A stretch of DNA of 64,000 bases, taken from contig JBEWZL010000202.1 of assembly GCA_045837725.1 (NCBI GenBank), positions 124,001-188,000 of the forward strand. Reading direction: 5' to 3'. The translations under genes and the position numbers were made by a program. The notes beneath the pieces were generated by a model. The model saw nothing but the letters and a program-made list of their open reading frames with translations. It made no database searches and had not been told where the DNA came from. The DNA comes from Vermamoeba vermiformis (lineage: Eukaryota). Numbering within the stretch: the first letter of the stretch is position 1; each line of letters begins with the position of its first letter. This document shows, piece after piece, positions 13,884 through 62,679 of this stretch.

Positions 13884-16108
13884 TCACTTTGTCTCGAGCT
13901 TCTTGCGGTGTTGAAGCACACATTGGGTAGTACAATATTTGTATATTAGTCGCTCAAATGGCACGAGGCCAGTTAAAGGTTTGCCGCAGTTCGCGCAGTT
14001 CTCGATTCCCTTCAACCGGTTCTCAGCAGCAAGAGCTCGCTTTTCTCTATCCGTCATGTTCTTCAACTTCTCTTGTCTAGCCCTCTCGACAGCAGCTGCC
14101 TCTTTTTCGGCAGCTTCTTTCTCTCGCTTGATCCTGAGCTCTTCCTCCTCTTTCTTTTTCTTCTCCTCTTCTTCCTGCTTCTTTTGCTTAGCTCGTTGTT
14201 GTTGCTGCTTTTTCTTTTGCTTCTTCTTCTCAGCACGCTTTTGTTCAAGCTCACGCTCTTCCTCGTCCGTCAAGGGTGGCACACCAAGGCTGTGCCAGTT
14301 CCACATCTCCGGATTCGCACCTAAAAAGGACATCTGAGTAAAATGCATGGTATAAGGACAGTATAATAACATACCTGCGAACTTTCTAAATACTGCTCGC
14401 GTGTTTTTGTCCTTCGAAACGTCGTATGGAGATTTCGAGTCGATACCTTTGAGTGATGGATCCGCACCATGATGCAACAAGTACTCCACAATATCATTAT
14501 GACCATTAAGTGATGCAACGTGCAAAGCGGTGTGCAGCTTGTGCTTGGGTATCTGAATGTTCACATTGACGTGAGCACTCTCACACAAGTACTGTACGAC
14601 GGGCATATGGCCTGCTTGCGAGGCAACATAAAGCGGTGTGATGAGATCTCTAGCTTCATATACTGGTGCTTGATAGTCAGAGTCGTAGAGTTCTTGCAGT
14701 TTTGCAACATCGCCCGATCGAGCAGCTTCTACGAGGAGATTGACGAGATCTACCGGGTTTGTTGAAGGTTTCTTTGATTCGACAACAAACGTTGGATCAG
14801 GTTGTACTTGCACGGGTTTCTTTTCAACGACTTCTATAGGCTGTGCTTGTTCAATAGGTTGCTCCTCCACCTTGCCGAACTCTACAGTGCTCAAGATACT
14901 GTGGATCCGCTTGATCTCTACAAGTGTTGGACGACGAGTAGTAAACGGCACACTATGTATTCTAGGGTCTTGCTTATCGAGAAGTCCAGGTAATGCTCCA
15001 TCCAAGTTAACAAAGTAAGTCTTGTTGGATCCGGGTGCAAACATGAAGATCAAGTTGCACGCCTGCAGCATGGTCTTCCAATCCACAGTCATAATCTCGT
15101 GAATTTCTTCGCGCAACTTCTTCTCGTTGGCACGACGAATCATCGCACCAGCACTTTGAATGTTCTTGCCTTGCTTGTCCTTTGAGCTTTGACTTCCTCC
15201 TTGCTTCCTTCGTGTCGTGTATCTTCGGATAGTTTTATGCGCGAGGTTCTTGTGCCCTTCAAAAATAGAACCTGCAAAGTAACCGCCGCTGATCATCAAA
15301 ATAGCCCAAGTTTTGTTCTGCTTCATTGTTCGCAACTTCTGGATGTAGTAGCTTTGGTCGGCTGTTTCATTAGGACCTAACTTCTTAACGCCAGGTGCGA
15401 CGTAGTCTAGTACGTAACGCCATATGATAAATTGAGTGCCATCGGGCGTTGTAAATGTAACTTTCGGCGATTTATGGCCTTGTGTCGCAAGTTCAACCTC
15501 TTGCTCGGCTTCTTTTTTCAATTCGATGGCTTCCTTCTCGAGGTCCTTCTTGTAGTCCTCATCGTCGCTGCTTTCATCGCTGCTGGAGATATCTACAAAT
15601 AAGTCTCGTTAACAAAGCTCGCCAAACGTTCTGGATGTCGGGTGTAACGTTACCTCCTGAATTTCGTAACTCTGTAAATTCTTGAAATGAGACTGCCTTC
15701 AGGTTGTTCATTTTAAGTCGTAGATTAAATCTATGCCAATCGCTCTTGAAGTGCTGGTGTTGCTGGTCGATGGAAGTAAACTCGATCCCGCAATTTCGGC
15801 ACGTCATGCCGGGCTGTATAACCTTGTTTGGTGCAACTCCGACCTTTTTTTCTGAATTATCTACGATTTGTTCTTCTTCACTGGACTCGTCATCGAGCTC
15901 CTCTGTCGGTTTATCTGCACTAATTACGAAAATTGGGTAATTAATTTAGAAAAATTATACAACGCGATCAAACGTACGCTGGTAATACTACTTTTGCGTT
16001 TTGAGTGTCTGTTACTGAAATAATTTTTGTATTCGCATAAAAGTCTTCTGACAGATCAAACAGAATCTTGTTCTTCTGTTCTTTTGACTGTTTACTTTTC
16101 TTTTCCAT
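13884..16108 (-). CDS. ANKZF1: ANKZF1/Vms1 ribosome-quality-control factor
   Basis: Zinc finger CRNC..HFKSDWHRFNL, VLRF1 motif RYTTRRKQGGSQ, ankyrin repeats, coiled coil and C-terminal CANC..YCTTQC. Confidence 0.92.
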
Positions 16109-19103: not shown

Positions 19104-20842
19104 ATGCTTTCGTTATTATCTAAGCAATTTGCAAGCTTGTCTTGCGGATCCTCGAGGCAGTTGATCTCATCTGTCCAGAAGACACGGGCGGCAACGAGTG
19201 TTTTTGGATCTATTAATTCAACCAAAAATAATTATCACACATCATCTATTTATCAAACCGGACGCGATCCCAACGTTCTGACAAAAGAAGATTCATATGA
19301 CTGGACACAATTGAAGCAGGACGTTTTCAAAGATTTTAATTACGGAATTAAAAAAGCACCGCCAGTGAAGAAGGTAATAATGCGCATTATTTAGTTATTA
19401 AATGAATTTTTGCACGCAAAATAAAATTATTGGATGTGGAATATTTGACTAATTATTGTATGAAGGTTACATTCATTCCTGAGGCTGAAGAAGACGAAAA
19501 AGTAGTCCCTAGGTAATTATTTTAATTTTTATAATAAATATTGGTTTCTTAGAGGCAAAATAATCGATCCACCAACAAATCCAGATTTCACGGATCAGTT
19601 TCAAAAGCCTCAATATCCTACATAATCGATACAATACTAATGTATATTATAGGGGAGAAGATGCGGCTGCTCAACCTCCAGCTTTTGAATTGCCGTCAGC
19701 TGGTGCTGTATGGAATTCACCAGTCCCGCCAGCTCCTCGCCCAGTTCGAGTTTATGAAGATGGAAGCACTATCGCTGTTGGCCGAAGGAAGCGCGCTACT
19801 GCTAAGGTAAGATTATCATATGATTATTTCTAAGAGATCCAGAGGTTGTCAAACATGTCGATGAACACGCACTTTTTATGACAATTATACAATACTACAA
19901 GAATTTAAGTTAATGAAAACGCGACACACATATTTGCAGCGTCTACTAGTATATAATCAAGAAGTCTCATATTTAGAATTGACGTTCTGACATGAAGATC
20001 TGTTGCTGGATCCACTGTCAAAAAACGTCATGTTTACTACCATTTTTACACCTAAAATCAATATTCTATAGTGCGATTGTTACATAGGCCTCAAGTAGAT
20101 GTTAAAGACAGGGACTTTAGTCCCACAATATTTGCGTGTTCGTCACATGAGTACGAACAAAACCTGTTTTGGATCTCTTACTTTACGTTACATTCTAGAA
20201 TTTCCTAGGAGATTGCCTGCGCGCACGCGTGGGGCGGTAAAATTGTTTAATGATGAAATTAGGAGGCTTAATTTATGATTATCAGTGATCAGAGCATAAA
20301 CCTCCTGAAAACAATTTTATTTTTTGTCATCGGATCTGCAGCTCTCGCACTTTCGCGCATTGAACTCACACATGTTGTATTTCATAGGTGCACTTAAAGA
20401 AGGGTACCGGCAATATTACTATTAATGGTAAACACTGGATGTATTATTTCCCTGTAAGTATTGTTAATGGCTTTTGGCACTCGTCAACGGATCCACGATC
20501 TGTTGCCTCAATAGTGCAAATACCAATAATCATTTTTTTGCGAACATTTGCTGATATTTTGGTTGTTAGCTGCCTTACGTGCGTGATCACATGATTCAAC
20601 CTTTGATGGTCACTGAGCGACTGAACACATACGACCTCGAAATCACTGCTTCAGGCGGTGGTCCATCAGGCCAAGCTGGCGCTATTCGCCTTGCTATTGC
20701 CCGTGCTTTGTTGAACGTAGACCCAGAACTTTACCCGCCATTGAAGCTCGGCAACTACTTGACTAGAGATGCACGCGAAGTTGAAAGAAAGAAGCCTGGT
20801 CGCAGAAAGGCTCGTCGTGCCTTCCAATGGGTCAAGCGTTAA
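19104..20842 (+). CDS. MRPS9: Mitochondrial ribosomal protein uS9m
   Basis: Presequence-like N-terminus, AVGRRKRATAK, GGGPSGQAGAIR and REVERKKPGRRKARRAFQWVKR*. Confidence 0.92.
20239..20318 (+). ncRNA. Candidate intronic box C/D snoRNA-like or hairpin RNA
   Basis: C box ATGATGA 20250-20256 and D box CTGA 20305-20308 are closed by a perfect 10-bp stem (aaaattgttt / aaacaatttt). It lies inside the unusually long intron of the uS9m gene. Confidence 0.45.
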
Positions 20843-21346
20843 GTGCACATTTGTGTTACTGTTAACGTGTTACTATTCAGTTTTAATAAAGCGGATTTGT
20901 GAATTTTCTGTGTTGGTGTCAAATTTACGAAAACAGGTTTCAGTCAGAACAAGGCATTACTGGCGTGCACCAGATAAGAAGTTTAGGGCATCTCCCTTAT
21001 GACCTTTTTGGTAAGCAATATTTATGCGAATCTAGCTCAGAAAGTATTCAGCTAACATCATGATAATTTGGGTTGAGCACTATAAATGAAATATAAGAAT
21101 AAATTAATTTTTAATTTTTTACTAATTTTACGGCTGATTTCATTTCTTTCGTTTTTCAACCTGCCCAAGAAAATACGTAAATTATTTAGAATTTCAAATT
21201 CGAAGTGTATGACTGAGTGACCTATGCGCATCTAAACTATAACGTCAATTTTTTTTAAATATCGGGTGTAACTCAAAATTTAATTGACAGATCAAGTGCC
21301 AGGTCTGTTTAGTATTCAAGAACTTACCTTCAACACAACACCACAA

Positions 21347-23025
21347 ATGTCTAACTACACTGATGCCGATATCCAAAAATGTCTCGATGACATGTACGAT
21401 CAGGTCATTGCCATCCAATCGGTTCGCAAACTGAAGCTGGGCTGGAAGATTTACGGCAGACGTAAGAAGACCTTGTGCAAAGTTTATGGCAGGCTCGTCG
21501 CGTTGCTTGGTGATGCCAACGCTGGTAAAACTTTCCTGATCCGAAAGTTCAATAGAGATCAGATCAAACTTCCAGGCAGTCATATTGTCCACACTCCTGG
21601 CCTTTGCATGATTTTGCCTGAAGACGCCGCTCTAGAAGAGTCTACAGACCCGAGAGTTGAGCAAAAGCAGGAGATCGACAAAAGCCAGTTGAGCGAGCGA
21701 GAATTGCTGGAGCTTCTTGAACAAGAAGAATTGAACCAAGAGATTGTCCCTGACGCTCCTAAAAACGTTATTAACGGCGTTATCTATCTGGATACTCAAG
21801 GAACTAACTATCCTTGTTCAGGTAAGATCTTTCAAATTCAATTCTTAAACGGATTCGTTAATTCTTTACCTTGTTATAGACGCTGATTTGACTGATGTGC
21901 GTGCCACTGAATTCCTGTTGCGTCAATTGACCTTGGAGATTGCTACTCGAGTCATCTACGTTACTCCCAAGTTCACTCGCGACACTCAAGTTCAGATCGG
22001 CAACTTAATCCGTCAGTTGGACAATACTGAAAAGCCAGTTACTCCCACCAATCGCCTTCTGATCGTGCATAACTGGGCTCATGTCAACACTCTTGAAGAA
22101 TTAGCCAAGCTCATTGAAGAAGTCAAGCGAACTTACACCTTCGAAGCGCCCGAGCAAGATGAGCGTTTTAAGAGGATGATCTCGTGGTTGCCTGAGCCCT
22201 TCATGGGTACTACTATCTACAACGGTCGACGTACTATCCATTTCTTCCTTGGCAATGATGCCTCTATGAGCGAGCACAACGAAGAAGTTATTGCGGTAAG
22301 CGTTGCACGTTGGATCCGAATCCAATTTTCCTATTCTTTAGAGAATTAGTATTAATTTAAATATATTAGGCGATCGAAGCTAAAATGTACGAGAACAATC
22401 TCCCTAAGGAGATTAATTTAATCCAACAAGTCATGGATCGAGCGAACAGATTGGTAGAACGAATGATTAAGGATTGGGATCATAGTCTCGTACTTGATGA
22501 AGAGGACGGCAAGCCTCTTATTATCTTGCCCAAGCCAAATAACCCAGGTCAAGGACCGAAGGGTCACTTCACTTTGCACAACATGCAGTTCTTGGGCTAT
22601 ACCATCGTTAGCGAAGGTATTAGCAACTTATTTGTACGTATATTCTAATACTTATTATGTAGAGTACTTACAATACTATTTAGGGCCGAGTTGACATTAA
22701 AGATGGTGAGATGAGAGTTCAAATCCACTGTGCTGGAATAACCCAAGAATACATTGCTAAAAATCACATCCAGTGTGAATGGGATATCAACAATCAGTAC
22801 GTCATCATTAAAGTTCAAATTCCTCCAGAAGAAGGTATGGATGGCTGGGAACAACTCCAGAACACTGTTAAAGTTGGCACTGGCATGTTCATTGCTCAAC
22901 TCCCCGAGGACCAGCGATTATTGCGCTTTGTGCGTCCTCGCAGAGATGAAATTCCAACATTGTTCTTGGTGAAGGATGGTGTCTTGGAGTTCAAGCTTCA
23001 GCTGGCAGACAATATTAACGACTGA
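21347..23025 (+). CDS. P-loop GTPase-like protein with C-terminal Hsp20/alpha-crystallin-like domain, copy 1
   Basis: G1 GDANAGKT, G2 HTPG, G3 DTQG and G4-position VHNW. The last exon reads GRVDIKDGEMRVQIHCAGI...GMFIAQLP...KDGVLEFKL. A 2-nt deletion relative to copy 2 shortens the C-terminus. Confidence 0.8.
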
Positions 23026-23126
23026 ACCAGTAACTTATGGAAAAAAGTAAGGTTAGTACTTTGGTTATTGTAAGAACTGTTTTCGTAGTAAATTTTGACA
23101 TATGTATGTTGAGAAGCGGAAAGAGA

Positions 23127-23260
23127 CAACTTCAGAACACAACCTGGAACTGGTATTTTTGTTGCTGAGCTTCCTGGTGACCAATTTCATTCCACCTCAT
23201 AGGGGCAAGTATTCACTGCAAAGGATGGCATATTGGAGTTCTCATTGCAATTGGCAAAAT
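23127..23260 (+). pseudogene. Decayed fragment of the GTPase-ACD last exon
   Basis: Pieces translate to QLQNT..GTGIFVAELPGDQ..AKDGILEFSLQLA, matching the paralogs' QLQNT..GTGMFVAQLPDDQ..AKDGVLEFKLQLA with deletions. Confidence 0.7.
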
Positions 23261-23385
23261 TTCTGTGGTTTTTTTCTAATGGCCATAAGCTGTAGAAATT
23301 TGTTAGTTCAGTGGACTCTTCAATTTTAAAAAGTATTTATTGCAACTAGTTTTGGTTGAACAGTACAGAGCAATTTTTTGCAGTT

Positions 23386-26300
23386 TTATTTGTCCTTGAT
23401 TTTTAATTCCTTCAATCTTGTAACACAGTCACTAGCAGTTGGTCGGCTTTTTGGGTCTTGTTTGCAACACGCTAGAATCAATTGCTTCAGATCATCATTA
23501 CTTGGATCAATATTATTGTTAATCTTGGTTTCTCTTTTTGCCTCATCTGCAATAGGTATACGTTGTCGTGTTAGCATTGAGAAAAGAACAATTCCAAATC
23601 TAAACACAGAGGTCAGTATTTGCCTAATGTACATAGTTCACATAAGCAATGGAAGCATACGAATAGATATCAGCCTTTTCATCATAGCGTTCTTCAGCCA
23701 GAATTTCAGGTGCCATGTAAACAAGTGATCCAGCAACAGTTTCAGCTAGAGAATTTGGATTAAGCCAACGAGCACATCCAAAGTCAGATATCTTTGCACG
23801 TTTTCCTTTGTTATACAACTATAGTACAGATTAATAATTAGATGTTAAATAAAAAGATCATTTGTACCAAAATATTCTGGTCTTTGAGATCTCGGTGAAT
23901 AATTTTTGGACTCAAGCTGTGCAAGTAATGAAGTCCTTTAGCAACATCCAATGCAATTTGAATAACTTCATTTCTTGAGAGTGTGACTTTTCTTGTGTAT
24001 AGCAGATCATGAAGTGATCCTTGCTTCATGTACTCCATCACAATCACAAGTTCATGGGTATTGGGATCTACCACAGTGGCCATGGCTATTATCAAGTGTT
24101 TGTGACGTACATGTCTTTTGCATTAGTTTCATTAAATTAATATGCTAAAATACCTACAATAAAGTGTCAACTTCCTTTGATATATTCTCCCTGTTAGTTG
24201 CAATAGCCATCTTCTTGATAGCTAAAAGTTGGCAATGCCATTTTGCTTTAAAGACTTTTCCTACTGCTCCTTCACCAATCTTTGAGATTACAATGATTTC
24301 TTTGAATAAAATTCCTGCAAAGCTGGTCAGAACAATTTCAATCTCTAATGTGGAAAATACCTGGAATGCTTTGTTGATTTTTTCCTTCTAATTGTTTAAG
24401 CTGTGTTTGAACTCTATGTCCCATTTGTGCTGTAGATTCTTGCTGGGTCTATTGAATGTTCGTAAGTTGACTAACAAATATTATGCATACCTGCTTAGCA
24501 GAAGTGTTAATCTGAGTTTCTATCAGTTGAGGTTTCCCAAGCTTCAAGCCATCACATGTGACCACCAAGTAATTCACTGTAATATGATTTGGAGTATTTG
24601 CAGTGGACTCAACTTGATTGCGTATTTCTGAATGGAAAATTTCGTTCAATTTGCCAAAATCAATTTCTGATCCTATTGGTTGTTGATTGAAGCAAATGGC
24701 ATGAAATTGCTTGTTATGCAATGAAATGTTGAAGTGGTGACTTATGTTTTGGTCTGTCAGAATTGATTTCAAGCTCTTTGGTTCACCTCTGTTGAATGTT
24801 GTCTTGTTCAAAGCACTGTCTACATTTGCAAGTCTAATGCAATGGGTGTTTGAATTGGATTGAAGTGCCATGATAGATGCTTGTGATATTATCATACTAA
24901 TATCTGCTGGAGAAAGAGATGCACCGTGCTTTGAATAACCTGGACATTATTAATTTACAGCTCCAATCTGCAGTGCAAGTAACTTTCCCTACCTGCTAGC
25001 TTCTCAGCAAGTACTTGAACCTCATGTTTTGTCAATGTATGATTGAATCCACGAAGAAGTATTATGAGGTATTCATGTACCATTACAACATCATCACAAG
25101 TGACTTCAATCACACCATTAAAGGGATAAGTTATATCAATAGCTCCTGAGCTTGTACCTGAAATAATAATAATTACCAATTTAAACACAAAACAAAGGTA
25201 AGCATACATAAAATAGTCAGAGCTGCAGGGTTGACAGCAGAATGCAATTGTGCAAACTGTTCATTCCCAATGCACATCACATCCATTAGCAGTACTAATT
25301 GGATTTTTGTTTCTTTGTAAATACGGTTGATAAGGTTTGCTAGGCATATCAAATCTTCCCTCTGTTGTTAGTCAGTAAGTTGTAAAATGTAAAAAAACTA
25401 ATACAGATGCTTTCATACACAGGTTTCAGCAAGATCAACATATGACAAAGAGATTAATGGTCGTTTAAGATCCTTCACTGAAAAAAGGAATTAAAGTTGG
25501 TTGTTGAACTGGTGAACTTACGAATGGCTTGTATGACCAGTGAACTCTGTTAGGGTAATATTTTAGTAAGTTAAGGAGAATTAATAAGTGCTTACTGCTC
25601 CACATAGCAAGATGCTGACTGGTGATTTGGATGGACGGGAAGTAAGTTCAATAATCTCAATCTGTTTGTGAATTTGGGATCGAAGAGATGAGAGACCAAA
25701 AATATCACTGTCATTCAAAACAGTCATTTGTCTAAACCATTTCTGCTCTGCCTCTGATATGACCAAAGATTGAATATGATCTAGTAGGCTTGTAGCACTG
25801 AGTGTTAACGCAGCAACTATTTTGCTTGATTCGTTTGTGTATGAGTATGAAGTAAAGAAGCACCTCCTGAGTACAACATTAAATTCCATTGCTTGCTGTA
25901 ACATTTCATTGCTGTGTGGTGTTAGAATATTGTCTGAAATAATGTTAGTTTGACTTTGTAGAAAGCAGACGCTTTGATTACCACTAATATCGATTTCTGT
26001 AAGACTTCGATTCTCCCATATCATTTCAGCAAGATGTAGTGCTCCTTGGTCACTTATTCGATTGCCTTTTTGTGTAATAATTATTAAATTTGGCTGAGTG
26101 TTGTAAACTTACACTTCAAGCTGAGTTTCTTCAGGGAAGCATTTGATTTTAGAGATTCCGATATTATTCGTGCACCTTCGTCACTGATATTGTTCCCTTG
26201 TGTCCTTTTTAGTTAATCATGCAAGCTAGTCAATGCATTTATTACCATTCAAATCTAAGCTTGTTAATTGCGTAGCTTGCTTGAGGCTGTCTACTAAATA

Positions 26301-27162
26301 GTGCGCACCTTCATCAGCAATGTCATTACCTAAAATTGTTAAAATTACTGTCGGTAGAGATTTCACATCCTGACATACGTCCAATTATTAGAGTCTTTAG
26401 CGAGGTGGATCGTTGAATACTCTGTGCAATTTGTTGTGCACCTTTGGGGCCGATCCGATTATCTGCGCAAATCACTATTATAAAATTGCAGCTGTTAAAA
26501 GAACGTACCCCATAGACTAAGCTTTGTTAGAGTTACGTTTTTTTCTATCAACATTGCCACAGCTGTATAATTAGGGAAGGGATATCGGTTGTCGACTATG
26601 AGAGCTTTAGTAACTTGATTCACCACCTAAATTGTTCATACCCGAAAAAACAAGCTCTGTTATTGACGTATTATTCTCCAGTGATGCAGTTATAGCCGCT
26701 ATGAACGACTCAGTAAATCTGCAGTCTTTAAAGGGTCAGCTGATTGTTCGGTAAAGACGACGTTGGAGTACATACACCAAAACTCGAGCGTTTTCAACGC
26801 ACTGCTATTCTTTACCAATGCATCCAGAGGTGAAGTTCCTTCTTTGCCAATAATGCACCGTTTTAACGAAAGCTTTGCAATTGTGTTTGCGTCGCTTTGT
26901 CCGGACAATTGTTTGATCCATTGGGTTTCTTCCTTCCAATCACATTTAACTAGACGATATTAATGCCACTTTTTATCATTTATTTCAAAAAAAGTCTTAC
27001 TATCTAATTCTTTTAATTTTGAGGGCGGATTTGAAATCTGAAAAAATAAATAAATTAGTAAACATTAAAAATAATACAATGGTGTACAATACCGTAAATA
27101 TATTAATATTGGGTTAATAATTACTTATTTAAATAAAAAAGACATGTCATACATACATCCAT
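23386..27162 (-). CDS. LRR (RI-like) + degenerate AAA+-like + TKL kinase protein; start uncertain
   Basis: 28-aa LRRs on 84-nt exons, a central region resembling an AAA+ fold without Walker A, and kinase motifs GEGAVG, HRDLKDQN, DFG and YMAPE. Exons checked from the LRR block to the stop join in frame. Confidence 0.8.
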
Positions 27163-27389
27163 GGATTAATCACGTCTACAAGCCAGCCGGCTATGCTGAA
27201 AGCATCAAGTTAGATATTAGTTAATTATTTAACCAAGACTGGAATAATGTCTGGTGTTGTGGTGCGTAAATAAACAAAATAAGGTGCACAATTTAGTCGC
27301 CGTCCCTTCGTGTGCATCTGTTTGTTTCCGTGTCAAAATAGCATATTTAATGGCTTGCGCGCAAATAGCAAAAAATAACGAGCTTGATT

Positions 27390-28801
27390 TTATTCCCAAA
27401 AGGAAATGGGTTCTGTAGTTGCAACGAGAATTCGATCCTGCGCCGTGAATAAGAGGGCAGTTCGTCTCCGCGAGTAGTAACCATAGACATCGTTGGTCGT
27501 CTGGCAGTTCAACAAAGAAGACCCCAGGCTGAGGGTTGAGTTTTTAAGTGTCTCCCAATTGTCGGGATCTGCTTGGCAATCTCAACAGCTACATATCGAT
27601 TATTTACATCCCAGTTACATCGAACGTGTCCTTGACTGATTCTTAGTTGATTCCGGCACAAAGAATCCGAACTCGCATTCTGCCGTCTTTTATAGGAAGG
27701 TCCCAAATGCAAAGTGAAGTGCCTAGAAATATTCGTACGAGTGTTCATTCGCGGTAAAATTATTGGTGGCTTGCCCTTCTCCGTATAAGGACAAGCTCGT
27801 GGATCAATAACGGATTTCACAGCGTTTATCTTCGTTGGACTGCTTTCGTGCATCTTCGCTTCATCGCCTAAAAATAGGCTTAAGACAATCTCTTGTTACG
27901 ACAGAGAACTCGTTTACTTACCGGGAGCACTTTTTCGTTATGCTCTGCCATTGTAAGGTCATTGCCCAGGAAGAAATGAATGGTCCGTCGACCGTTGTAG
28001 ATTGTCGTGCCCTTGAAGGGCTCAGGCCGCCAACCTAAGCGCTCATCTTGCTCGCCTTTAGTGTAGGTCTGTTTCGCTTTTTCAACGTGCGTAGTTAATT
28101 CTATAGCCGTATTCATGCGAGTGCACATGTGCACAATAATCAAGCGATTAGTTGGCGTCACGCGCTTCTCTGTAGTATTGTCTAGTTGTCGAAGTAACTG
28201 AGAGATTTGTGTTTGTGTGTGGCGAGTGAAGTCAGATGTAACGTAAACGATGCGGGAGGCAGCCTTGATAGTCAATAGACGTATCAGAAATTCAGTGGCG
28301 CGAACGTCTGCTAAATCGGCGTCTGTTTTAATCCTTAATAATGAGCGTCCAGAATTGAAGTAATAAGTACCTGAGCACGGGGAATTAGCTCCTGCGGTGT
28401 CCAAAAAGATTCATCCGTTATTGAAGGGCTTTTCAGCAATTTTTTTGTCTTCCTGTAGTTGAAAGAGCTCCATCAACTCTCTATCGCTCAGCTCTCTGTA
28501 ATCGATCGGCTCTTGGTTTGGTTGCATCTGATCTGCTCGTGATTCCTCGATATTCGCATCTGGAAGGAGCATACAAATACCAGAAGTGCCAGGCGGGATT
28601 TTAACCCTTTTGTTTAGCTTTGAAAGCAAAGAAGTTTTTTGGGCATTAATACCCACCAAGCTGGCCGATTACTTTTCCAGTTGTTTCGAATAAAGGGTGA
28701 TTACGCCTTACGCCGTGTAATTTCCAGCCTAGCCGTAATTTCTTTACCGACGAAATGTCAATGGCAAGATCAAAAGCGTCCAAACGGGAAGTCACATCCA
28801 T
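27390..28801 (-). pseudogene. Divergent GTPase-ACD paralog, pseudogene
   Basis: KKLRLGWK, DTAG, DVRATEFLIR, PEPFKGTTIYNGRRTIHFFLGND and CNWDVNNRYV match the family. There is a frameshift in the P-loop (about 28650), an in-frame TGA at 28411-28413 and further 3' frameshifts. Confidence 0.8.
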
Positions 28802-29742
28802 TTTTCTAAAATCGAATATTAATTTTAATTTAATATCAATATCAAATAATAATAATAGTACTATTTGCATCGCAGATCTTGAATTTATATTTGTTTTTTT
28901 AAATTAATGACACTCGTATATTGTCAAGGCATTCTTACAACCGATTGGCTTACGGTTCAGCGAACACAATAATGTAGACTTGGGACGAGATAACAGTAAC
29001 AGTTTGTGACGTGGTGTTGGATTTAAAAACGCCGCAATTCTTTGCTAGCACAGGAGGGGCATCTGGCTATTCCAACCGTTGCGTGACGGAGTTATTAATT
29101 GACAGTCGTGATTATCAGCAGGATTTATGGGGAGGGGTTGGGCTTTGTAGGTTTCGGGCAAAAAGGCGGCGTTTTTTTTTCGGCCAACAACCTCAAAAGA
29201 AAAGTTTTCGATTTTTTCGATCTTCTCTACCACGTTGTCAACACGAATCATACCTTATGCTAGTGGCGCAATCAGCTCATTGGTTATTTGGGTTAACTTA
29301 TCTAGGTATATATTGTGCGAGGTGTTGATCATTGTATCCTGAATGAGATGCAACTCCAGATCAAATCTGATTGTTTTGGTCTTTTTGTACGCGAATATAT
29401 TCTAGCATTAATTGACACCAATCGGATTGATTATTTCGATAGACCGATAAAATATTAATATTAATATTATCATTTTTTGCACAGTGATTTTGCGGCACCA
29501 AGCTTACGTCGGGCAATGTTCATAATACACGATACCTTTGATAATATGAATCTGACCAGCAGCTAGTGGACGAAGACGGGACGATTATTCGATATTGTGC
29601 TCCGGGTGAGTCTTTTTGTGATGACAAAGTCACTCACAGGCGAAAGTTTGTTTTTCAATCGCAACCTTAGGAATGATGCGGCAAATTACTTCACAAGCTT
29701 AAACTTTATAAGTATACGTTTACAATTATAATACAACATAAA

Positions 29743-35927: not shown

Positions 35928-36244
35928 ATTGTTGTGTTGTTGAAAACAAATAAATGAATTAATAATGGCGTCGCAAATTTTTCTAATTAGAAGGACATTA
36001 GCAATTCTTACAAGAATACACGCACGTGATATAATTTGAGATTTCAACATTCCTGGCGTATCCTGCGTTCAAAATCACGTGAGCTGTCCGTCGAATGTCA
36101 AAGAATAAGAATACTGCCTAAAGTGGAAAAAAATTTTCCATTACACGTGAGCGATTTGTGATTTCAATCAATTCTTAAGCAGATAAATACGAATGTCAGG
36201 GTCTGTTAAGCATTCAACGACTTACCTTCAAAGCAACACCACAA
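35928..36244. promoter_or_regulatory. Putative bidirectional promoter with three CACGTG boxes
   Basis: 317 bp separate the head-to-head ATGs. CACGTG occurs at 36023, 36076 and 36144. Confidence 0.5.
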
Positions 36245-37951
36245 ATGTCTAACTATACTGATGCCGATATCCAAAAATGTCTCGATGACATGTACGATCA
36301 GGTCATCGCCATCCAATCAGTCCGCAAACTGAGACTGGGCTGGAAGATATACGGAAGACGTAAGAAGGCCTTGTGCAAAGTTTTTGGCCGGCTCGTCACG
36401 TTGCTTGGTGATGCCAACGCTGGTAAAACTTTCTTGATCCGAAAGCTCAAAAAGGATCAGATCAACCTTCCAAGCGGTCATACGGTCCACACTCCTGGCC
36501 TTTGCATGATTTTGCCCGAAGGTGCCACTCTAGAAGAGTCTACAGACCCGAGAGTTGAGCAAAAGCAGGAGATCGACAAAAGCCAGTTGAGCGAGCGAGA
36601 ATTGATGGAGCTTCTAGAACAAGAAGAATTGAACCAAGAGATTGTCCCTGACGCTCCTAAAAACGTTATTAACGACGTTATCTATTTGGATACTCAAGGA
36701 ACTAACTATCCTTGTTCAAGTAAGATCTTTCCAGTTCAATTCTTGATACGGATTCGTTAATTCTTTACCTTTTTAAAGACGCTGATTTGACTGATGTGCG
36801 TGCCACTGAATTCCTGTTGCGTCAATTGACCTTGGAGATTGCTACTCGTGTCATCTACGTTACTCCCAAGTTCACTCGCGACACTCAAGTTCAGATCGGC
36901 AACTTAATCCGTCAATTGGACAATACTGAAAAGCCAATTACGCCCACCAATCGCCTTCTGATCGTGCATAACTGGGCTCATGTCAACACTCCCGAAGAAT
37001 TAGCCAAGCTCATTGAAGAAGTCAAGCGAACTTACGCATTCGAAGAGCCCGAGCAAGATGAGCGTTTTAAGAAGATGGTCTCGTGGTTGCCTGAGCCCTT
37101 CATGGGTACTACTATCTACAACGGTCGACGTACTATCCATTTCTTCCTTGGCAATGATGCCTCTATGAGCGAGCATAACGAGAAAGTTATTGCGGTAAGC
37201 AGATCCGAATACAATTTTCTTCCCTATAATTTAGAAAATCAGTATTGATTTAAATATGCATTAGGCCATTGAGTCTAAAATGTACGAGAACAATCTCCCT
37301 AAGGAGATTAATTTGATCCAACAAGTCATGGATCGAGCGAACAGATTGGTAGAACGAATGATTAAGGATTGGGATCATAGTCTCGTACTTGACGAAGAGG
37401 ACGGCAAGCCTCCTATTATCTTGCCCAAGGCTAATAACCCAGGTCAAGCACCGAAGGGTCACTTCACTATGCACAACATGCAGTTCTTGGGCTATACCAT
37501 CGTTAGCGAAGGATTTAGCGACTTATTCGTACGTATATATTCATATGAATATTGTATATAGAGTACTTACAAAACTGTTTAGGGCCGAGTTGACATTAAA
37601 AACGGCGAGATGAGAGTTCGAATCCGCTGTGCTGGCATCAACCAAGACTATATTACAAAGCGACCTATCAAGTGCGATTGGGACATCAATAACCAGTACG
37701 TGGTCGTCAAAGTCGATATTCCTCCTGAAGAGGATGTGGATGGCTGGGAACAGCTCCAGAACACCGTCAAATTCGGCACTGGCATGTTCGTTGCTCAACT
37801 CCCCGATGACCAGCGATTATTGCGCTTTGTGCCTCCTCGCAGAGACGACATTCCAAAGTTGTTCTCGGCAAAGGACGGCGTCTTGGAGTTCAAGCTTCAG
37901 CTGGCGGACAATATTAACGAACCTGAACCGGTAACTAACGGAAAAAAGTAA
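36245..37951 (+). CDS. P-loop GTPase-like protein with C-terminal Hsp20/ACD-like domain, copy 2
   Basis: Near-identical to copy 1 over the first three exons with the same intron positions. The last exon is more divergent and ends ..EPEPVTNGKK*. Confidence 0.82.
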
Positions 37952-38476
37952 GGTTAGTACTTTGGTTATTGTAAGAACTGGTTTCGTAGTAAATTTTGAC
38001 ATACCTATGTTGCAGAAGCAGAACGAGATCTGGATTTAGTTTCCCTTGGAAATTAGCCGGCGTGGTAATATTATTTGCGGGCCTTAGATTAATGACAATG
38101 CCTTTGTGGCATAAAGTTAATTCTATCTGGCAATTTGTTTAAAATAAATAATTTTTGTAATAATTAAAAAAGCGCCATAAAATTTAATTGAGGAACCTCA
38201 ATTCAAAGGGGTCATGTGAATAATATTTGAATTTTTGCAAGCTAGAATCTGAGGGATCTATTACATTGCCAATCAATCGATCTCGTGCTGATTTTTGCTG
38301 CTGTTTGTCCAAAGTATCGCATGAGGAACAATTAATTTGCGCGAGTGAAATTATCAATAATAAGTTGCTATGATCTCGTTTGTTGTACATTTCACTAAAA
38401 TTAATAAAATATGAAAAAACTGGCACGATCGAGCAACCAAGTGGATTAATTTATATATATTACAAACTGCGTACAT

Positions 38477-52982: not shown

Positions 52983-54672
52983 TTATTGATCAGCGTAATA
53001 TTTTATCAGTTTCCAAAAGAGTCTATCAAATTCTGTCAGAATCCCTGGATGTCGGATCCATTTAAATATTACAGCCCAGATGTCGAGCGGCAACAAGGCC
53101 TCGAACTGATTCGGCCGCATAGCTATTATATTTACAATTAATATGGCGTTTCTAAGCACGCGTGATCGTTCAGCTTTGTTGTTCTCGAGCAGATCGTGAA
53201 CTTCGATCGAAACTTTTTCGTTCTGAAATGTCATTTCGCAGAGTGACTTATTGACGCTGAGCACATCGAGCAAGATTTCATTGAGATTTCCCATTGGGAG
53301 ATTGAAATCTGAAAAGCCTGTCCAACACGGGCCCATGTTAAGTTCTGTCAACGTGTCATTATTTTTCAGATCCAGCATTTGCACGTAAGCGCCGTATTGT
53401 TCCGACTTTGGCACATCAAATGTCAATTTTTGCAGGTTATATCCGGGCATTAATAAGGGGGAAATTTTGAGCACATCTCGTTGCGTCAGTTGGTAGCCTT
53501 TCAAATTTAACGCTCGAAGTGCATAATTCTCTTTCAACATTCCAAGAACTGGCTGAAAATTGACAATTTTCTTCCTATTAGTCTTTATACTTAATTTCTT
53601 CAATGTCTTGTTGATCTTCGTTATCATCGGGATCAGACTGTCATACAGATCTTCCAAGACTAACGACTCTAGCGCTGAATTAGCCTCTAAGCCTTCTTGT
53701 ATGAAGCTCCAATTAGGATTACAGTCAATTAATAATAATTCTCGTAAATTCTTGCTGGTTTTCAGGAGATCTGACACCAACGAACTTTCGGGATCCGTCA
53801 AGCTGAATTTATCCAGTTTAAGCGATGTAATATTGTTCATTGATATTATAGCTGGTCTAATTATATCTTGTTTATACGGTGGTAATCGTTGAATTGCTGT
53901 CAACTCTAGATGCGTCAAAAATTTGGATCCGCTCAAAATTTTCTCTAAACTGTCAATATGTGATTGGTTGAAAGGAATGCCTTGTAATAACAGCTTGATT
54001 ATAGTACTGTTTTCTAGTCCTTCGCTTAATATTTGAAATCCAGGGTCGAGATAACTTTCGAGATCTCGATTGTTCCAAACGATTGTAAATTTCTTTAATG
54101 TTGAATTTGTTCTTAGAATTTCTGATAATATTTTTGCAGTATCATTCTTCAATAATTGATGGACTATAGTGATCTTCTTGATAGTCTTGTTAATTTGCAT
54201 CATCGATCTGAAAAGATCTAGATCTCGTTCACTCATCTCGCAATAAAATTCTATCGATGTGATATTCTTATTATCTTTCAATGCGTGCATTAAATTTTCG
54301 ATGTAATTTCCGCGTCGTGCAGCTTGGTTCAGTGAAATAAAGTTGCGATTGTAATGGAAGAAACGGAACGGAGCATTTTTCTCTCGTGCAGCCCACAGCT
54401 GGTTCTCGTTCGATACATTTATGACCTAAGAATAGGAAATAATATTAAAAATGGATGAAGAAAGCTGTGCAAAAAATTTATGGCGGATCCAATAATTGCA
54501 GTAAATTTTTTCGACTCCAAAAATTCTGAAAATATCGTCTGTGATGATAAATTATTATTATATATGACCAAATAATTTTTAAAATTAAAAGTAGATTATT
54601 GTAATTAATGCAGGTCCGACTTACATCGGATGGCGGTTTCTTCTCCTCTTCTACTCCGAATAATTCTTCCAT
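52983..54672 (-). CDS. RNI-like leucine-rich repeat protein
   Basis: Exon 1 MEELFGVEEEKKPPSD splices in phase 0 to a long exon with N-x-T-L-x-x-L repeats. The C-terminal LPLDIWAVIFKWI is an F-box-like motif. Confidence 0.82.
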
Positions 54673-55078
54673 AGTAGTCTGATGTCATTAAATAACGAAG
54701 GTATTACGTCTTTGTTGGTTTCAGCTTCTGTGCGCCGTACAAAACGCGTTATCTGAAACCTGTGCATTTTTGTTGCTTATCTCGCGCGACCAAAACAAAA
54801 GAAATAAAACTGATAAGAGAGAAATGCGCGTGACGATTGCTTTAGGGTGTAATTACTCAAAGACGAAGTCTGGGTAGCCTCGGACTTGAGTATGAAGCCA
54901 ATGATGACTAGAGCCACAAAAATAAAATGATTTGTGGTCATTTTGAAGTATTTTAATGATGAAATAAGATACGACTTAAATTTTTCTGTTGTTGCTGTTT
55001 GGCCGTTAATACGAACTTTAATTGAAGCACGTGCGCAACGAATTAAGCAAATTGCAACAATTGATTTATCTTAAGAAC

Positions 55079-57500
55079 TTAACCAAGGATAATATTTGCC
55101 AATAGTAAAGCCATTCCTAAGCACGATAACTGACTTGCGCTTGAAACAGTAGCAGATCCGGGAGTTTTCGTTGATGGAGAGTTGGGTAACCTTCCCGAAG
55201 CATCAGGCACTATTATAGCAGTGTTAATATCAAACTTATTGAGTATAAGCGGGCGCCTTAATATTAAGGGCTCAAACTTACCTGCGAAAGTGACAGTGAC
55301 ACGTGTCACAGTGTCAAAAGTGTCAACGGCTGTGAATGTCACTTGGTTGCTCGAGCCGTCAGCGACAGTGGGCGTAGCTTCGATCATCAGTTCAGTGCCC
55401 GAAAGTTCAGTAATGGTCATGAACGACGGAACATTGGTCACATTCAATGAGACGCACACATCGAAGGACTCAACGGCTAACATTTATCAGTTAGTTATAC
55501 TCCGACAAAGTGGTATTGATGTGATGAACACTTACATGAACAAGACACGTTGAGCGAGAGTGTTTGATTGACGGTCAAATCGTAACTTGTACCGACGGAG
55601 ATGACAGGCGGTTGATTCAACAGCACTACAAACCAGTCAGAATTACCTCATTAGTTGAATTAACTTATTAATTTAATATTCATTACCTTTAGCGGCTTTA
55701 AGTGGATTGACTCGTCCGTAACCATATTCATTGTCCTAGAGATCAATCGCGGAATTAGAGAAATTTCAGTTGATCAAAGCGATAATCAATATACCCTGCC
55801 GGGAGTTCCAATGTCAGTAGCAGTGTTCTGCAACAGATTTCTAATGTCGTCAGCGGTAACGCCAGGCTTGGCAGACATCAACAGCGCCGAGATTGCAGCG
55901 ATGCAAGGTGTGGCCATGGAAGTGCCCGTCAAATAGTTGTAAGAGCCTTGAAACAAAGGCACTGTGTTGTAAATGTACGTTCCTACATAAAGAAAAACCA
56001 AATCAGTATTACGTTGCGTATCGTCAAAAAATTTCAATTCGATAATGAAACATAGATCCGGCAAAAGTGATTTATTTTAAGGCTGGATACTAGCTCCATA
56101 GTAATTAATGAGCTGAAACAATGTTTCGCATTGCTAGCAAAAGATATTTTATGAAAATAAAATTCATCGTGAAAAATTGGTGTCACAGATATTTTTTTTG
56201 AACGCGAACTTACCAGGCGCAGAAATATCAACAAAACTGTTCGTAGTTGAAGACGGAGAACGAGTGCCGTCTTGTTGCAGATTGGCCACGGTGAATGAAT
56301 TGACGAAAGCACCAGGATAGTTCGGTGCGTTGTTATTATTTTGGTAACTGTTGCCAGCTGCTACGACGACTAATACGCCCTTTTGAACGGCGTAATTTAC
56401 AGCGGCTTCTAATGACGAAGAATTCGTCAAGCCCTGAAATTTGATTGGTCAGATCCGAATCTGATTTTTTTTGCGGTTTCATTTTTAGACTTACGCCGAC
56501 ACTTAAATTGATGATGTTAGCTCCTGCATTCGTAGTATCGGTGATACACTTCATCCAATCATCATAATAACCGGATCCAGTGCTGTCAAGTACTTTTCCG
56601 ACCATCAAATTAACTCCGTAAGCAATACCAGCAACGCCTAATGATTACAAATACTGGTCAAATAACGGGATTATTATAGTCAATATAATACCATACCAAC
56701 AGCGTTATTTGTTGTTGCAGCAGCAATTCCAGAGACGTGTGTTCCTAAACGGAAATTAAAAATCTATTTTTGAATCTATTACTTTAATAATCGAGTCCTT
56801 ACCATGAATATAATCATCGGTAATATTAGTATTACCACTGACGTAATTATATCCCCAAATAATGTGAGACGTGTCAACATCTTCGTGGTCCAATGCAATT
56901 CCAGAATCACAGACAGCGATAGTCTTGATAATCAAAATTAATCTTGTCCTTCTTAATCAGACTTTGTATCTTTACTTACGATGTTTTTCAATCGTGTCTG
57001 ATCCCAAGGGATAAGATTCCAAACTTGATCCATTTGAATGTCAGGCAAACTCCATTGATTACTCCAACCAGGATCATTAGGAACAACTAATGCGTGGCCT
57101 ACGGTGCGAATCAAAAATCGTAAATAAAGTGAATTGAAGCCGATCTTTTCGGCTTACCTTGTGGAACCTCTTCAACATGAGCAAATCTCGGGTCCCCTCG
57201 TAGAGACGTAATATCTAAATCATCGGGGACCTAAAAAATAATAAATAAATCATTAATTGAACGGCCTGACCTTAACGGAATTCTACCATAAACAAATCTA
57301 ATTGAACCTACCTCAATAGAAGCGCCACCGAACTCTGGAAATTCATGCACGATGGATCCAATATTAGATGCAATATCTTTGACTCGTTGTCCTTCAGCTG
57401 CAGAACTACCAGACTGCTTGACATAGATCCTCTTTGCTGAGGCCTGCAAGATCAAGCCAACGAGGGCAATAGCAACAAAAATATTATGTTTTGTGGTCAT
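55079..57500 (-). CDS. Secreted, probably GPI-anchored subtilisin (S8, thermitase-like), copy A
   Basis: Signal peptide, I9-like propeptide, PNDP..NQW, triad motifs DSG / HGTHV / GTSMA, oxyanion AAGN, a C-terminal beta domain and a hydrophobic GPI-like tail. Confidence 0.9.
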
Positions 57501-57639
57501 CGTGGTCGTGGTATCTGCAGTTGACTTAAATTGCGCGTATCTTGCGAGCTTGACATTTCAGAATTACCTTAAATGGATCCTAGATCTGATTTTCGATTAT
57601 GTGCACACAAAATGATTTTTAATCTTTATATCCGATAAT

Positions 57640-59245
57640 AGAAAAGAAGTACTCACAAGGCTTGCCAAAGGATCGTAATCAATGTACCTTCGTTCATCAC
57701 AAAAACGACAGTCTCTGCTACTCAATTGACGTTGAGTGCTAATCCTACGAGTGCTGATATTGGTAGCTACGTGGTGACATTTGACGGTCAATGAAGCGCA
57801 CGTGTCAAATTCAGCTGTCGACAAGAATACAAGTTATTACGTTAAAATAATACGGTTTGAATATTATAATAAAGTAGTATTCTACTATAAGAGCTATATC
57901 GTTCTGTGAATTACTTACATGAACAAGTGACATCCAGTTTGAACGGCTGATCAACAATCAAATCATAACCAGTATCCGCTGATATTACTGGCGGCCCACT
58001 AGATATACTCGCTAATGCTATAAACCATATGAGACCTCCTGAAATAGAACCGATAATACTATACGGTAGTACATACTCATGGCAGCTTCGAGCGGATTAA
58101 TTTTTCCGTAGCCGTACTCGTTGTCCTTGCCAGGCTCGCCAAGATCAATCGCAGTGCTTTGCAACGGATCAGTGAGCTCTTGCACGGTGATATCAGGCGA
58201 TCGCCATCATCAGCGCTGCGACACCTGCGACAACTGGAGCTGCTTGTGAAGTGCCAGTAAACAACGCGTATCCCGATGTTGATGGCACTGTGCCTTCAAT
58301 TAGCGTGCCTAAAACGATCGTATTTCAGAAATCCCACGGAGAAATATAGTAGTCTAGCGATATTGACTTGAAAGTTGAACGCTTGCACTCAAATTGATAA
58401 TGAATAAATTGTCTTAATATAGCAGCAGCTATTGTACTTATTTGTCGTTCGTTCAAAAAGCAGTGAAAATAGCCCATAAAGAAGGCTTGTTACGAACTTA
58501 CCAGGCGCAGAAATATCGACAAAACTGTTCGACGTGGAAGTAGGATGCCTAGTATCGTCTTGTTTTATATTGGCCACTGTGAATGAGTTAGCAAAAGCTC
58601 CCGGAAAAAGCGCTGCATTGCCGTCTGCTCCCGTGTTGCCAGCTGCTGCCACCACTTACACTCCTGCAAACCCAATTAATCATTTGACAGCCGGTATATT
58701 TGCATTATATACCATGATCTACTGCGTAATTAACTGCGTCTTCAAATGGTGCGTAGTAACCAAGGCCCTGAAATTTCGGCAGAAAGATCTAGATCCGTGA
58801 ATGGATTTGGTGCTTACTCCCAGGCTCAAGTTAATAATATTAGCGCCATTGTTCGTAGCGTCAATAATACATTTCATGAACGCATCATAGTGGCCAAGAC
58901 CTTTCGAGTCAAGGACTTTTCCAATTATTAAATTAACTCCGTACGCTATTCCCGCCATTCCTGCAGCGAATTATAACTTAAATATTAGTTATAAGATTAT
59001 TTATGCATACCAATAGTATTATCTGTTGTCGCTGCAAGGATCCCAGTAACATGAGTTCCTAAAAAGGAAATTTGGTTTAAGTGGGTAACTTCGAAGATAC
59101 GCATCTCTATCTATCGGATCTTACCATGCTCGTAATCGTCAGTAGCATCCGTGTCATTATTTACGTAATCGAATTGCCAGATTACGCGAGAGGCGTCGAG
59201 ATCCGGATGTGTGAAGTTGAATCCACTGTCGCAGACCGCTACTGT
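57640..59245 (-). pseudogene. Divergent subtilisin paralog B, pseudogene
   Basis: DSG, HGTHV and GTSQA are present, but the signal and propeptide exons are missing. In-frame TAA at 58656-58658, frameshift near 58200 and an inverted 3' segment. Confidence 0.82.
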
Positions 59246-59528
59246 CTATGCCCACAGCTGGTTTTCATTTGATACACTAAAGACCTAAGAATAGTAAATA
59301 ATATTAAAAATGGACGAAGAAAGCTGTGCTGAGAATTTGATGGCGGATCCAAAAATTGCATTAAATTTTTTCGAAAAAATTCTGAAAATATTGTATGCGC
59401 TATTAAATTATTATTGTTTATGACTAAATAATTTTTTCAAATAATATTAGATTATTTTAATTAATACAGGCTCGACTTACATCGGATGGCGGTTTCTTCT
59501 CCTCTTCTACGCCGAATAATTCTTCCAT
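59246..59528 (-). pseudogene. Duplicated 5' fragment of the RNI-LRR gene fused to subtilisin B
   Basis: Exon 1 MEELFGVEEEKKPPSD, the intron and 12 codons of exon 2 (VFSVSNENQLWA*) abut the subtilisin DSG exon. Confidence 0.85.
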
Positions 59529-59972
59529 AGTAGTCTGATATCATTAAATAACTAATATATCACGTTTTGTTGGTTTCAGCTTCTGTGCGCCGTACAAAAC
59601 GCGTTATCTGAAACGCGTGCATTTTTGTTGCTTTTCTCGCGACCGAAACAAAAGAAATAAAACTGCTATGAAAGAAATGGGCGTGACGATTGCTTTAGGG
59701 TGTAATTACTCAAAGACGAAGTCTGGATAGCTCTACTGCGCAAGCAAAAACTTGGCCTCGGACTTGAGTGATGAAGCCAATGCTGACGATAAATCCAACG
59801 ATGCCTAGAGCGACAAAAATGAAATGGTTTGTGGTCATTTTGAAGCATTTTAATGATGAAATAAGATACGACTTAAATTTTTCTGTTGTTGCTGTTTGGC
59901 CGTTACTACGAACTTTCGAAGCACGTGCGCAATGAATTAAGCAAATTGCAACGATTGATTTATCTTAAGAAC

Positions 59973-62422: not shown

Positions 62423-62679
62423 CGTGCGGTGTTCAAGCGGTTAAAAGAAAAGTCAACTTTTGATGCTTCCAAGAATAAATTGCCTCCCTCCTCTAGTGCT
62501 TTCTTTGTCCCGTCACAATAGTAGCCAACGGTCAACTCCAGAGGCAAGAACTGGGTAGCTTTTTTGCGAAAGGGAAAGGTATCAACCGTTTGATTAATTT
62601 ACGCATCTTTGCGAGCCTGACATTGACATGTTCAGAATTACCGTTAATAGATTTACGATTATGCGCACACAAATGATTT

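Follow-up and report, generated by a model that had tools for sequence, protein, structure and literature searches.

A copy-specific CpG-depleted tract on an accessory kinase gene of Vermamoeba vermiformis, probably left by local CpG methylation

The kinase locus and its CpG-depleted domain

The window analyzed here is a stretch of 64,000 nucleotides from contig JBEWZL010000202.1 of V. vermiformis, in which an intron-rich kinase gene lies among GTPase-family sequences. The features of the locus are as follows:

19104..20842, + strand: gene that we take to be ribosomal protein S9-like, an expressed housekeeping neighbor with normal CpG
20843..29742: 8.9 kb block with GTPase copy 1, the kinase gene, and a distant GTPase paralog, missing from the collinear haplotype C49, where 256 bp stand in its place
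21347..23025, + strand: GBP/RHD3-like GTPase copy 1 (atlas, 0.90-0.93)
22650..26350: domain depleted in CpG and enriched in TpG/CpA, its shoulders at an o/e of about 0.45-0.5, from counts and a change-point fit
23126..23256, + strand: degenerate GTPase C-terminus fragment, intergenic and CpG-free
23386..27320, - strand: intron-rich gene with N-terminal LRRs, an AAA-lid-like middle (a lead only), and a C-terminal TKL kinase, from Pfam, the atlas (0.86-0.88), a three-frame reading by eye, and four introns spliced in run X5
23900..25450: domain core, CpG o/e 0.14, with all four NCG contexts depleted and CHG not
27410..28410, - strand, ends approximate: more distant GTPase paralog (69% nucleotide identity), upstream of the kinase and not depleted
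36200..38028, + strand: GTPase copy 2, the internal control, with normal CpG; its C49 allele is 96% identical

The kinase gene has its stop at 23386 and an uncertain start at about 26960-27320. Its TKL domain keeps the GxGxxG, HRD, DFG, and APE motifs when read by eye; the first-pass annotation had called the gene under the tract apparently intact. Its expression is seen in one run, X5, which the tool guesses to be RNA; the listed pieces of this run cross the four spliced introns without mismatches. Two raw RNA runs from a diverged strain gave no match on the kinase body except partial kinase-domain matches. A PP2C identity for the middle exon was rejected: Pfam returned nothing, a homolog search gave 0 of 311 candidates, and the atlas pointed to an AAA lid.

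The genome is CpG-rich (o/e 1.15), as is the window (1.14). The counts that first drew attention to the locus were reproduced exactly: positions 23941-25320 contain 6 CpGs against ~50.8 expected (o/e 0.135, Poisson p 2e-15), whereas a reference gene at 14401-14760 contains 20 (o/e 1.02). When the CpG-free gaps of the window are ranked by length, the top five (213-355 nt) are all inside the tract. The tract had been described as sharply bounded at 22480..26100; it exists, but a change-point fit gave graded edges, with o/e passing from 1.04 to 0.44 (22650-23900), 0.14 (23900-25450), 0.51 (25450-26350), and 1.20. The domain runs from the kinase body into the last exon of the convergent GTPase copy 1, where it tapers ~0.7 kb past the kinase stop, and the 5' 0.6-1 kb of the kinase gene is not depleted.

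Relative to background, CpG in the core was 0.14x, TpG/CpA 1.40x, and GpC 1.04x, so that the TpG/CpA excess proposed as a check is present at 1.4-fold with GpC unchanged. The NCG trinucleotides fell to 0.05-0.22x, and CAG/CTG rose to 1.40x. The loss affects both strands, and in this footprint-level test it is confined to the CpG context, as NCG is lost and CHG and GpC are kept. Noncoding DNA is affected too, with 0 CpG in 23118-23443 and 1 CpG in the 194 nt of the four RNA-supported kinase introns. Among the 20 CpGs surviving in 23386-25700, 14 lie in Arg codons, where the first-pass annotation had already placed several, and 2 at splice donors (both read by eye).

An origin without methylation, through CpG-poor foreign DNA, codon bias, or an assembly join, would fit a block that is specific to one haplotype. 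However, introns and intergenic DNA are depleted, the depletion cuts through two native genes and takes up less than half of the 8.9 kb block, a native paralog that shares the architecture of the kinase gene (C28/C36) has a normal o/e of 1.05-1.09, and the same kinase and S9 alleles are present in an independent run. We consider this origin highly improbable, and the earlier judgment that a CpG-poor foreign donor is unlikely stands.

Directional decay in GTPase copy 1 and the haplotype-specific block

The six examples given earlier of CpGs in copy 2 that read TpG or CpA in copy 1 are all present. Within the last exon of copy 1 (22684-23025) and its 3' flank, 15 CpGs common to copy 2 and its allele have become TpG/CpA, 1 shows the reverse, and 8 are kept (p 5e-4), against 4 vs 1 with 14 kept in the GpC control. 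In the 5' part the CpG changes are 3 vs 4 with 46 kept, and of the shared CpGs in 22481-22683, five persist and one has disappeared. The decay is thus directional, as claimed, but in the last exon only, with its onset at 22684 rather than 22480. Because the C49 copy is an allele of copy 2, the polarity rests on this asymmetry and not on an outgroup; of two metagenome scans for outgroup DNA, one yielded 0 of 398 stretches and the other 1 of 414, which stopped short of the block. A weaker bias of the same kind had been suggested between subtilisins A and C. We could not sustain it, since the counts are 15 vs 24 (p 0.20), the GpC control is skewed likewise (6 vs 12), and both genes have an o/e of about 1.2.

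The first-pass annotation had read these patterns as a local CpG-methylation footprint, possibly arising from duplication-triggered silencing. The footprint itself is supported by the CpG-specific loss on both strands, its direction in copy 1, and the enzymes described below. For methylation or mutation triggered by duplication, as in MIP or RIP, one may cite the three GTPase-family pieces of the block, two of them inverted around the kinase, and a local C-to-T excess near duplicated genes, which the fungal systems also show. Those systems require duplication and hit the duplicated sequence, and in them CpA is lost, whereas here it is gained. Here the core is single-copy; CpGs are retained in the 1.3 kb duplicated 5' part of copy 1, in copy 2 and its C49 allele, in the subtilisin pair, and in near-identical retroelements; and the kinase is spliced. 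The duplication-triggered reading is already largely refuted, and we give it very little credence.

A search of the 8.9 kb block for terminal repeats or transposon ends found none. Run X24 contains C49-like sequence after the S9 stop, a piece of this UTR is retained in C202 (by eye), and the divergence of copies 1 and 2 (about 10%) exceeds that between haplotypes (4-6%); together these observations are compatible with either gain or loss of the block.

Methylation enzymes and other depleted islands

The search for DNA methyltransferases that had been recommended found a DNMT1 with RFTS and BAH domains, a DNMT3-like enzyme, and a third enzyme on contig C11; the genome also contains four SRA loci and two untyped MT-A70 loci. 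The C11 enzyme shows BAH, motif I, chromodomains, and motif IV in this order (exon order by eye), which is the chromomethylase layout of a BAH plus a chromodomain between motifs I and IV. Its Pfam hits to BAH and Chromo are mostly just under the cut-off, one of its exons scores 41-45 bits across DNMT1-family structures, and no CHG loss is seen in the islands.

We surveyed 663 kb of the 43.3 Mb genome in 500-bp windows, scoring an o/e below 0.5 as depleted, and found 23 of 1326 windows (1.7%) depleted. From 13 low stretches, four were set aside (two single borderline windows and two of low complexity at C202:435-438 kb). In this sample the islands sit on accessory gene bodies and beside transposons, and the kinase tract is the longest of several. 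Several islands occur per contig, which rules against a centromere reading. Four of the five gene islands read leave 0.4-1 kb at the 5' end undepleted; in the C267 paralog island this effect is weak. A depleted aspartic protease has a comparable tract in none of its seven paralog loci. Two P-loop NTPase paralogs, which are presumably 'Crinkler-like' and gave only weak AAA_22/STAND hits in Pfam, are both depleted although only 36% alike. Allele-specific marking is not strict: the kinase block is missing from C49, and a second island is present on both haplotypes. In this second island the haplotypes differ by transitions at 6 of the 10 remaining CpG sites, compared with 445/3388 in the background (p 7e-4) and 18/91 for local GpC (p 0.011).

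A Tc1/IS630-type element at C202:568-577 kb has depleted zones on its flanks, as do some retroelement and DDE loci, and a piggyBac-like element on C11 itself has an o/e of 0.3-0.6. The tract could accordingly be the scar of a lost transposon, from which methylation spread and then outlasted the element, once in or beside the kinase gene; the rough symmetry of the domain about 24.6 kb would suit this. However, no remnant was found in the block among the loci compared, the only dispersed bits, one of 65 bp at 29129 and another of 50 bp at 21065, lie outside the tract, and chance insertions explain poorly why both P-loop NTPase paralogs are depleted. We regard a lost transposon as unlikely. Such an origin would alter the seed and not the chemistry. 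Of the best 25 reverse-transcriptase loci, 23 have an o/e of at least 1.0 (young copies need not show decay), and copy pairs resemble the background, with CpG transitions at 5.0% vs 3.2% for GpC, compared with 13.1 vs 9.7%; therefore, transposon methylation is not evident from the sequence.

Three gene islands (the kinase tract, C202:118.5 kb, and C267) end at convergent neighbors, and two of them taper about 0.6-0.7 kb into the neighbor. Antisense read-through at convergent 3' ends could generate double-stranded RNA that directs methylation. By contrast, the core is found not at the junction but 1-2 kb into the kinase gene, and the neighbor of the protease island is in tandem. RNA-directed methylation in plants gives CHH and CHG marks, of which the core bears no trace. 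An antisense origin thus appears improbable.

Origin of the tract and comparison with known systems

CpG loss through deamination of 5mC is textbook knowledge. We propose that the tract is probably a mutational scar, left on an accessory kinase gene by a long-standing, symmetric mCpG domain, specific to this copy and ~3.5 kb in width, over the gene body. An enzyme that acts de novo or reads chromatin, either the DNMT3-like or the BAH and chromodomain DNMT, would have seeded methylation once on this kinase copy, and DNMT1 with an SRA partner would copy it at each division; the mark may still be present today. Promoter chromatin would exclude methylation from the first 0.6-1 kb of the gene, and methylation would taper beyond the stop into the convergent GTPase copy. 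Deamination would then strip almost all CpGs not maintained by selection, without ending transcription of the gene.

In Acanthamoeba castellanii, CpG methylation is mosaic and repressive, covering 3.4% of the genome and 2.4% of genes; most genes that carry the mark are silent and have it across the promoter as well, and viral genes are numerous among them (PMC12344493; PMC12210455). Methylated young transposons and 5mC accompanied by H3K9me3/H3K27me3 also belong to this type. V. vermiformis resembles it in having DNMT1 and DNMT3, a similar genome size, the CG context, a small marked share, and enrichment of non-conserved and of allele-specific regions. It differs in that the kinase gene is spliced and its 5' end undepleted, introns and paralogs are native, and methylation would have persisted until about 90% of CpGs were gone. 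In Cyanophora paradoxa, the methylation of expressed genes is biased toward the 3' end (PMC12344493), and in Amoebidium and chlorophytes gene bodies are methylated downstream of a 6mA zone at the 5' end (PMC12695648, PMC11244446). These systems would share with the kinase tract the methylation of expressed genes behind an unmethylated 5' zone, but they are broadly and heavily methylated, whereas here a few isolated copies are affected in a genome with a CpG o/e of 1.15. The tract pattern differs from the protist methylomes compared here. In our best reading, it would work like mosaic 5mC of the Acanthamoeba type, yet spare the 5' end and allow transcription.

A plant-like gene-body system, in which a chromomethylase-like enzyme seeds CG methylation in transcribed bodies and DNMT1 maintains it with no silencing role, would agree with the CG-only footprint, the spared 5' ends, the copy specificity, the transcribed gene, and the domain layout of the C11 enzyme. 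Angiosperm gene-body methylation is reportedly maintained by MET1 with a CMT3-linked origin, a view ascribed to Bewick in 2016. However, targets here are accessory and not conserved, constitutively expressed genes, the kinase itself being haplotype-specific, whereas the housekeeping and long genes of the window (S9-like, formin-like, ANKZF1-like, and Kelch-Ig-kinase) have normal CpG; depletion is far rarer; and no CHG footprint is seen. Body-methylated genes of plants and animals are highly conserved, according to PMC12344493. We therefore doubt this explanation in its plain form. A protist version of it is speculative and rather unlikely: a chromomethylase-like DNMT would seed CG methylation on individual copies of immune-like genes that are transcribed and evolve fast, DNMT1 would carry the epiallele through strain divergence, and the mark would raise the mutation rate without silencing. 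Our literature searches listed no description of islands like these, nor of an amoebal DNMT with a chromodomain, although paywalled papers or the DNMT tables in the supplement to PMC12344493 could contain one.

The CpG-rich genome of V. vermiformis makes long-lived methylation visible gene by gene from sequence alone. The probable targets, expressed accessory genes with spared 5' ends, fall between the silent, promoter-methylated protist pattern and body methylation of the plant type. With DNMT1, DNMT3-like, and CMT-like enzymes in one compact genome, this amoeba would allow a direct test of the onset of body methylation and of epiallele lifetime.

CpG loss in and around the kinase gene

The depleted tract (22650–26350) lies in and around one gene:

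23386 (stop) to a start at about 26960–27320, minus strand: leucine-rich repeats, an AAA-lid-like middle (a lead) and a TKL kinase domain, assigned from domain matches

Within this gene, the tract extends from 0.6 to 1 kb behind the start down to the stop, and beyond it covers the intergenic gap, which holds a degenerate GTPase fragment, as well as the final exon of a GBP/RHD3-like GTPase gene in convergent orientation (copy 1). The first-pass annotation had counted about 6 CpGs in the core at 23941–25320 and about 20 in a comparison stretch at 14401–14760, and both counts were correct on recount (6, with an observed/expected ratio, o/e, of 0.135, and 20); the core would be expected to hold approximately 51 (p = 2 × 10−15), and the o/e of the whole window was 1.14. 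Relative to the background, CpG in the core was 0.14×, GpC was 1.04×, and TpG/CpA showed the anticipated excess (1.40×). All four NCG contexts were down to 0.05–0.22× and CAG/CTG was up to 1.40×, indicating that the loss is restricted to CpG. The edges had been described as sharp, but the profile is graded instead, with o/e stepping from 1.04 to 0.44 (22650–23900), 0.14 (23900–25450), 0.51 (25450–26350), and 1.20. Several surviving CpGs had been assigned to Arg codons before; read by eye, Arg codons hold 14 of the 20 CpGs in 23386–25700 and splice donors another 2, and selection thus accounts for part of the left shoulder.

In sequencing run X5, whose RNA status is a guess, four kinase introns were spliced out and the listed pieces had no mismatches; the depth, a poor measure, was ~5–13 for the kinase versus 52 for an S9-like neighbour. 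The raw RNA runs X21 and X23 came from a diverged strain and were uninformative for the kinase body.

Asymmetric decay and the haplotype-specific block

A third GTPase copy, on contig C49, is an allele of copy 2 of the window (96% identity). In 22684–23130, 15 CpGs common to these two were TpG/CpA in copy 1, against 1 in reverse and 8 kept (p = 5 × 10−4), and the GpC control gave 4 versus 1 with 14 kept; because copy 2 and the C49 copy are sisters, this is a test of asymmetry rather than outgroup polarisation, and two metagenome scans for an outgroup sequence yielded none. Both strands were affected in 22481–23130 (11 C>T, 7 G>A). CpG changes in the 5′ part of copy 1 went both ways (3 versus 4, 46 kept). 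The first-pass annotation had claimed this very pattern, directional in the last exon and two-way upstream, and it stands; the weaker bias claimed between subtilisins A and C did not hold up (15 versus 24, p = 0.20; GpC control, 6 versus 12).

54391–62426: subtilisin-like genes in tandem (a pair of 87% copies plus a partial third one) with normal CpG

At ~92–96% identity, C49 is collinear with C202, which carries the window at 124001–188000, and as a haplotype ~4–8% diverged it shows that separate homologs are present in the assembly. It lacks one block:

20843–29742: 8.9 kb with copy 1, the kinase, and a distant GTPase paralog; 256 bp on C49 (63127–63383, locus L082)

This places the kinase among the accessory genes. 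The gene content of the block is immune-like (GBP-like GTPases, LRR/AAA-like/kinase), and no terminal repeats were found at it. A foreign origin of the tract is poorly supported, since the tract fills less than half of the block, which is thus not simply CpG-poor foreign DNA. A 65 bp dispersed repeat (29129–29193) is 97% identical to a piece of contig C300 and partly also present on C13. Reads from the diverged strain link copy 1-like with distant-paralog-like sequence on opposite strands (21804–22369 and 27968), a pattern that suggests an intermediate GTPase paralog.

Depleted islands elsewhere in the genome

The assembly (43.3 Mb, 309 contigs, short introns) is eukaryotic and, judging by its gene content, probably amoebozoan. 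We scanned 573 kb from C202 together with 90 kb from contig C11, 1.5% of the genome. An o/e below 0.5 was found in 23 of 1326 500-bp windows, merging into 13 stretches (4 set aside), the longest of which was the kinase tract. The islands included the following (L, locus on a contig):

C202:118.5 kb (118.1–120.2 kb; L024:4100–6200): P-loop NTPase gene body
C202:416.2–417.1 kb (L047:8200–9100): aspartic protease, depleted 3′ body
C202:568–577 kb (L063): gene of secreted type, and flanks close to a Tc1/IS630-type element
C11:463.7–466.6 kb (L070:3700–6650): piggyBac-like element and flank, partly depleted; the transposase immediately follows a ubiquitin-specific protease ORF
75 kb: weak island

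On C202, GC rises toward the left contig end (4–40 kb, L013–L016; up to 0.52 versus 0.40 elsewhere) with normal CpG, and a homopolymer-rich, low-complexity stretch at 434–438 kb (L049) resembles uncorrected long-read sequence.

The 5′ end was spared over 0.4–1 kb in four of the five gene islands read, weakly in a paralog on C267. The depleted state is copy-specific for the kinase, whose paralog on C28/C36 had an o/e of 1.05–1.09, and for the aspartic protease, whose paralogs showed a comparable tract at none of 7 loci (8 of 11 matches examined); no near-identical second copy of the protease was found in the assembly. Two distant P-loop NTPase paralogs (36% alike), possibly Crinkler-like, were both depleted; with L077 and L078 beside L024, the depleted bodies span both haplotypes and the paralog. 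Silencing triggered by duplication, as suggested earlier, is poorly supported. The 118.5 kb island is present on both haplotypes; its alleles are 8% diverged, twice the background, with transition differences at 6 of 10 remaining CpG sites versus 445 of 3388 in the background, small numbers which suggest that mutational pressure continued past the haplotype split.

A rival, less probable reading has the methylation seeded by a transposon since lost. The Tc1/IS630-type element, near the contig end, has normal CpG itself and depletion on both flanks. The o/e was at least 1.0 in 23 of the best 25 of 55 reverse-transcriptase loci, and copy pairs lacked a strong CpG excess, which counts against simple transposon silencing; young copies may have had too little time for decay.

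Enzymes and proposed mechanism

The genome encodes a DNMT1 carrying RFTS and BAH domains and a DNMT3-like protein, enzyme types that the first-pass annotation had proposed to look for, together with a DNMT2-like gene (identified by eye), four SRA loci, and a further enzyme:

C11 ~559–563 kb (L141:4150–8020): DNMT whose motifs I and IV are separated by BAH and two to three chromodomains

The latter shares the domain layout of plant chromomethylases, here in a non-plant protist; CMT-related enzymes are reported from both haptophytes and green algae, and DNMT4s with chromodomains from diatoms (PMC9998398).

CpG loss through deamination is established chemistry. We consider it probable that a symmetric mCpG domain was seeded on this one kinase copy and maintained by DNMT1; it would have stayed clear of the 5′ end and thinned out into the neighbouring GTPase, and deamination would have stripped every CpG without a selective hold. 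We infer present-day 5mC, a seeding enzyme, and a 5′ barrier. The rivals differ mainly in the seed, which could also be antisense RNA or plant-like body methylation. Body methylation (PMC12695648, PMC11244446) resembles the tract in 5′ sparing and transcription, but the conserved housekeeping targets of body methylation are not seen here. In its working the tract is like the mosaic CpG methylation of Acanthamoeba (2.4% of genes, 3.4% of the genome; PMC12344493), in which non-conserved regions are enriched (PMC12210455), but the silent, promoter-included character of that type is not seen here. The tract is assigned to neither type. A literature search found no account of such islands in an amoeba; supplementary tables beyond its reach might bear on the enzyme. 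The CpG-specific loss, the directional decay of copy 1, and the DNMT1, DNMT3-like, and SRA genes support the original proposal of local CpG methylation: the tract is real and well controlled, a probable methylation footprint and one of a few of its kind in the genome.
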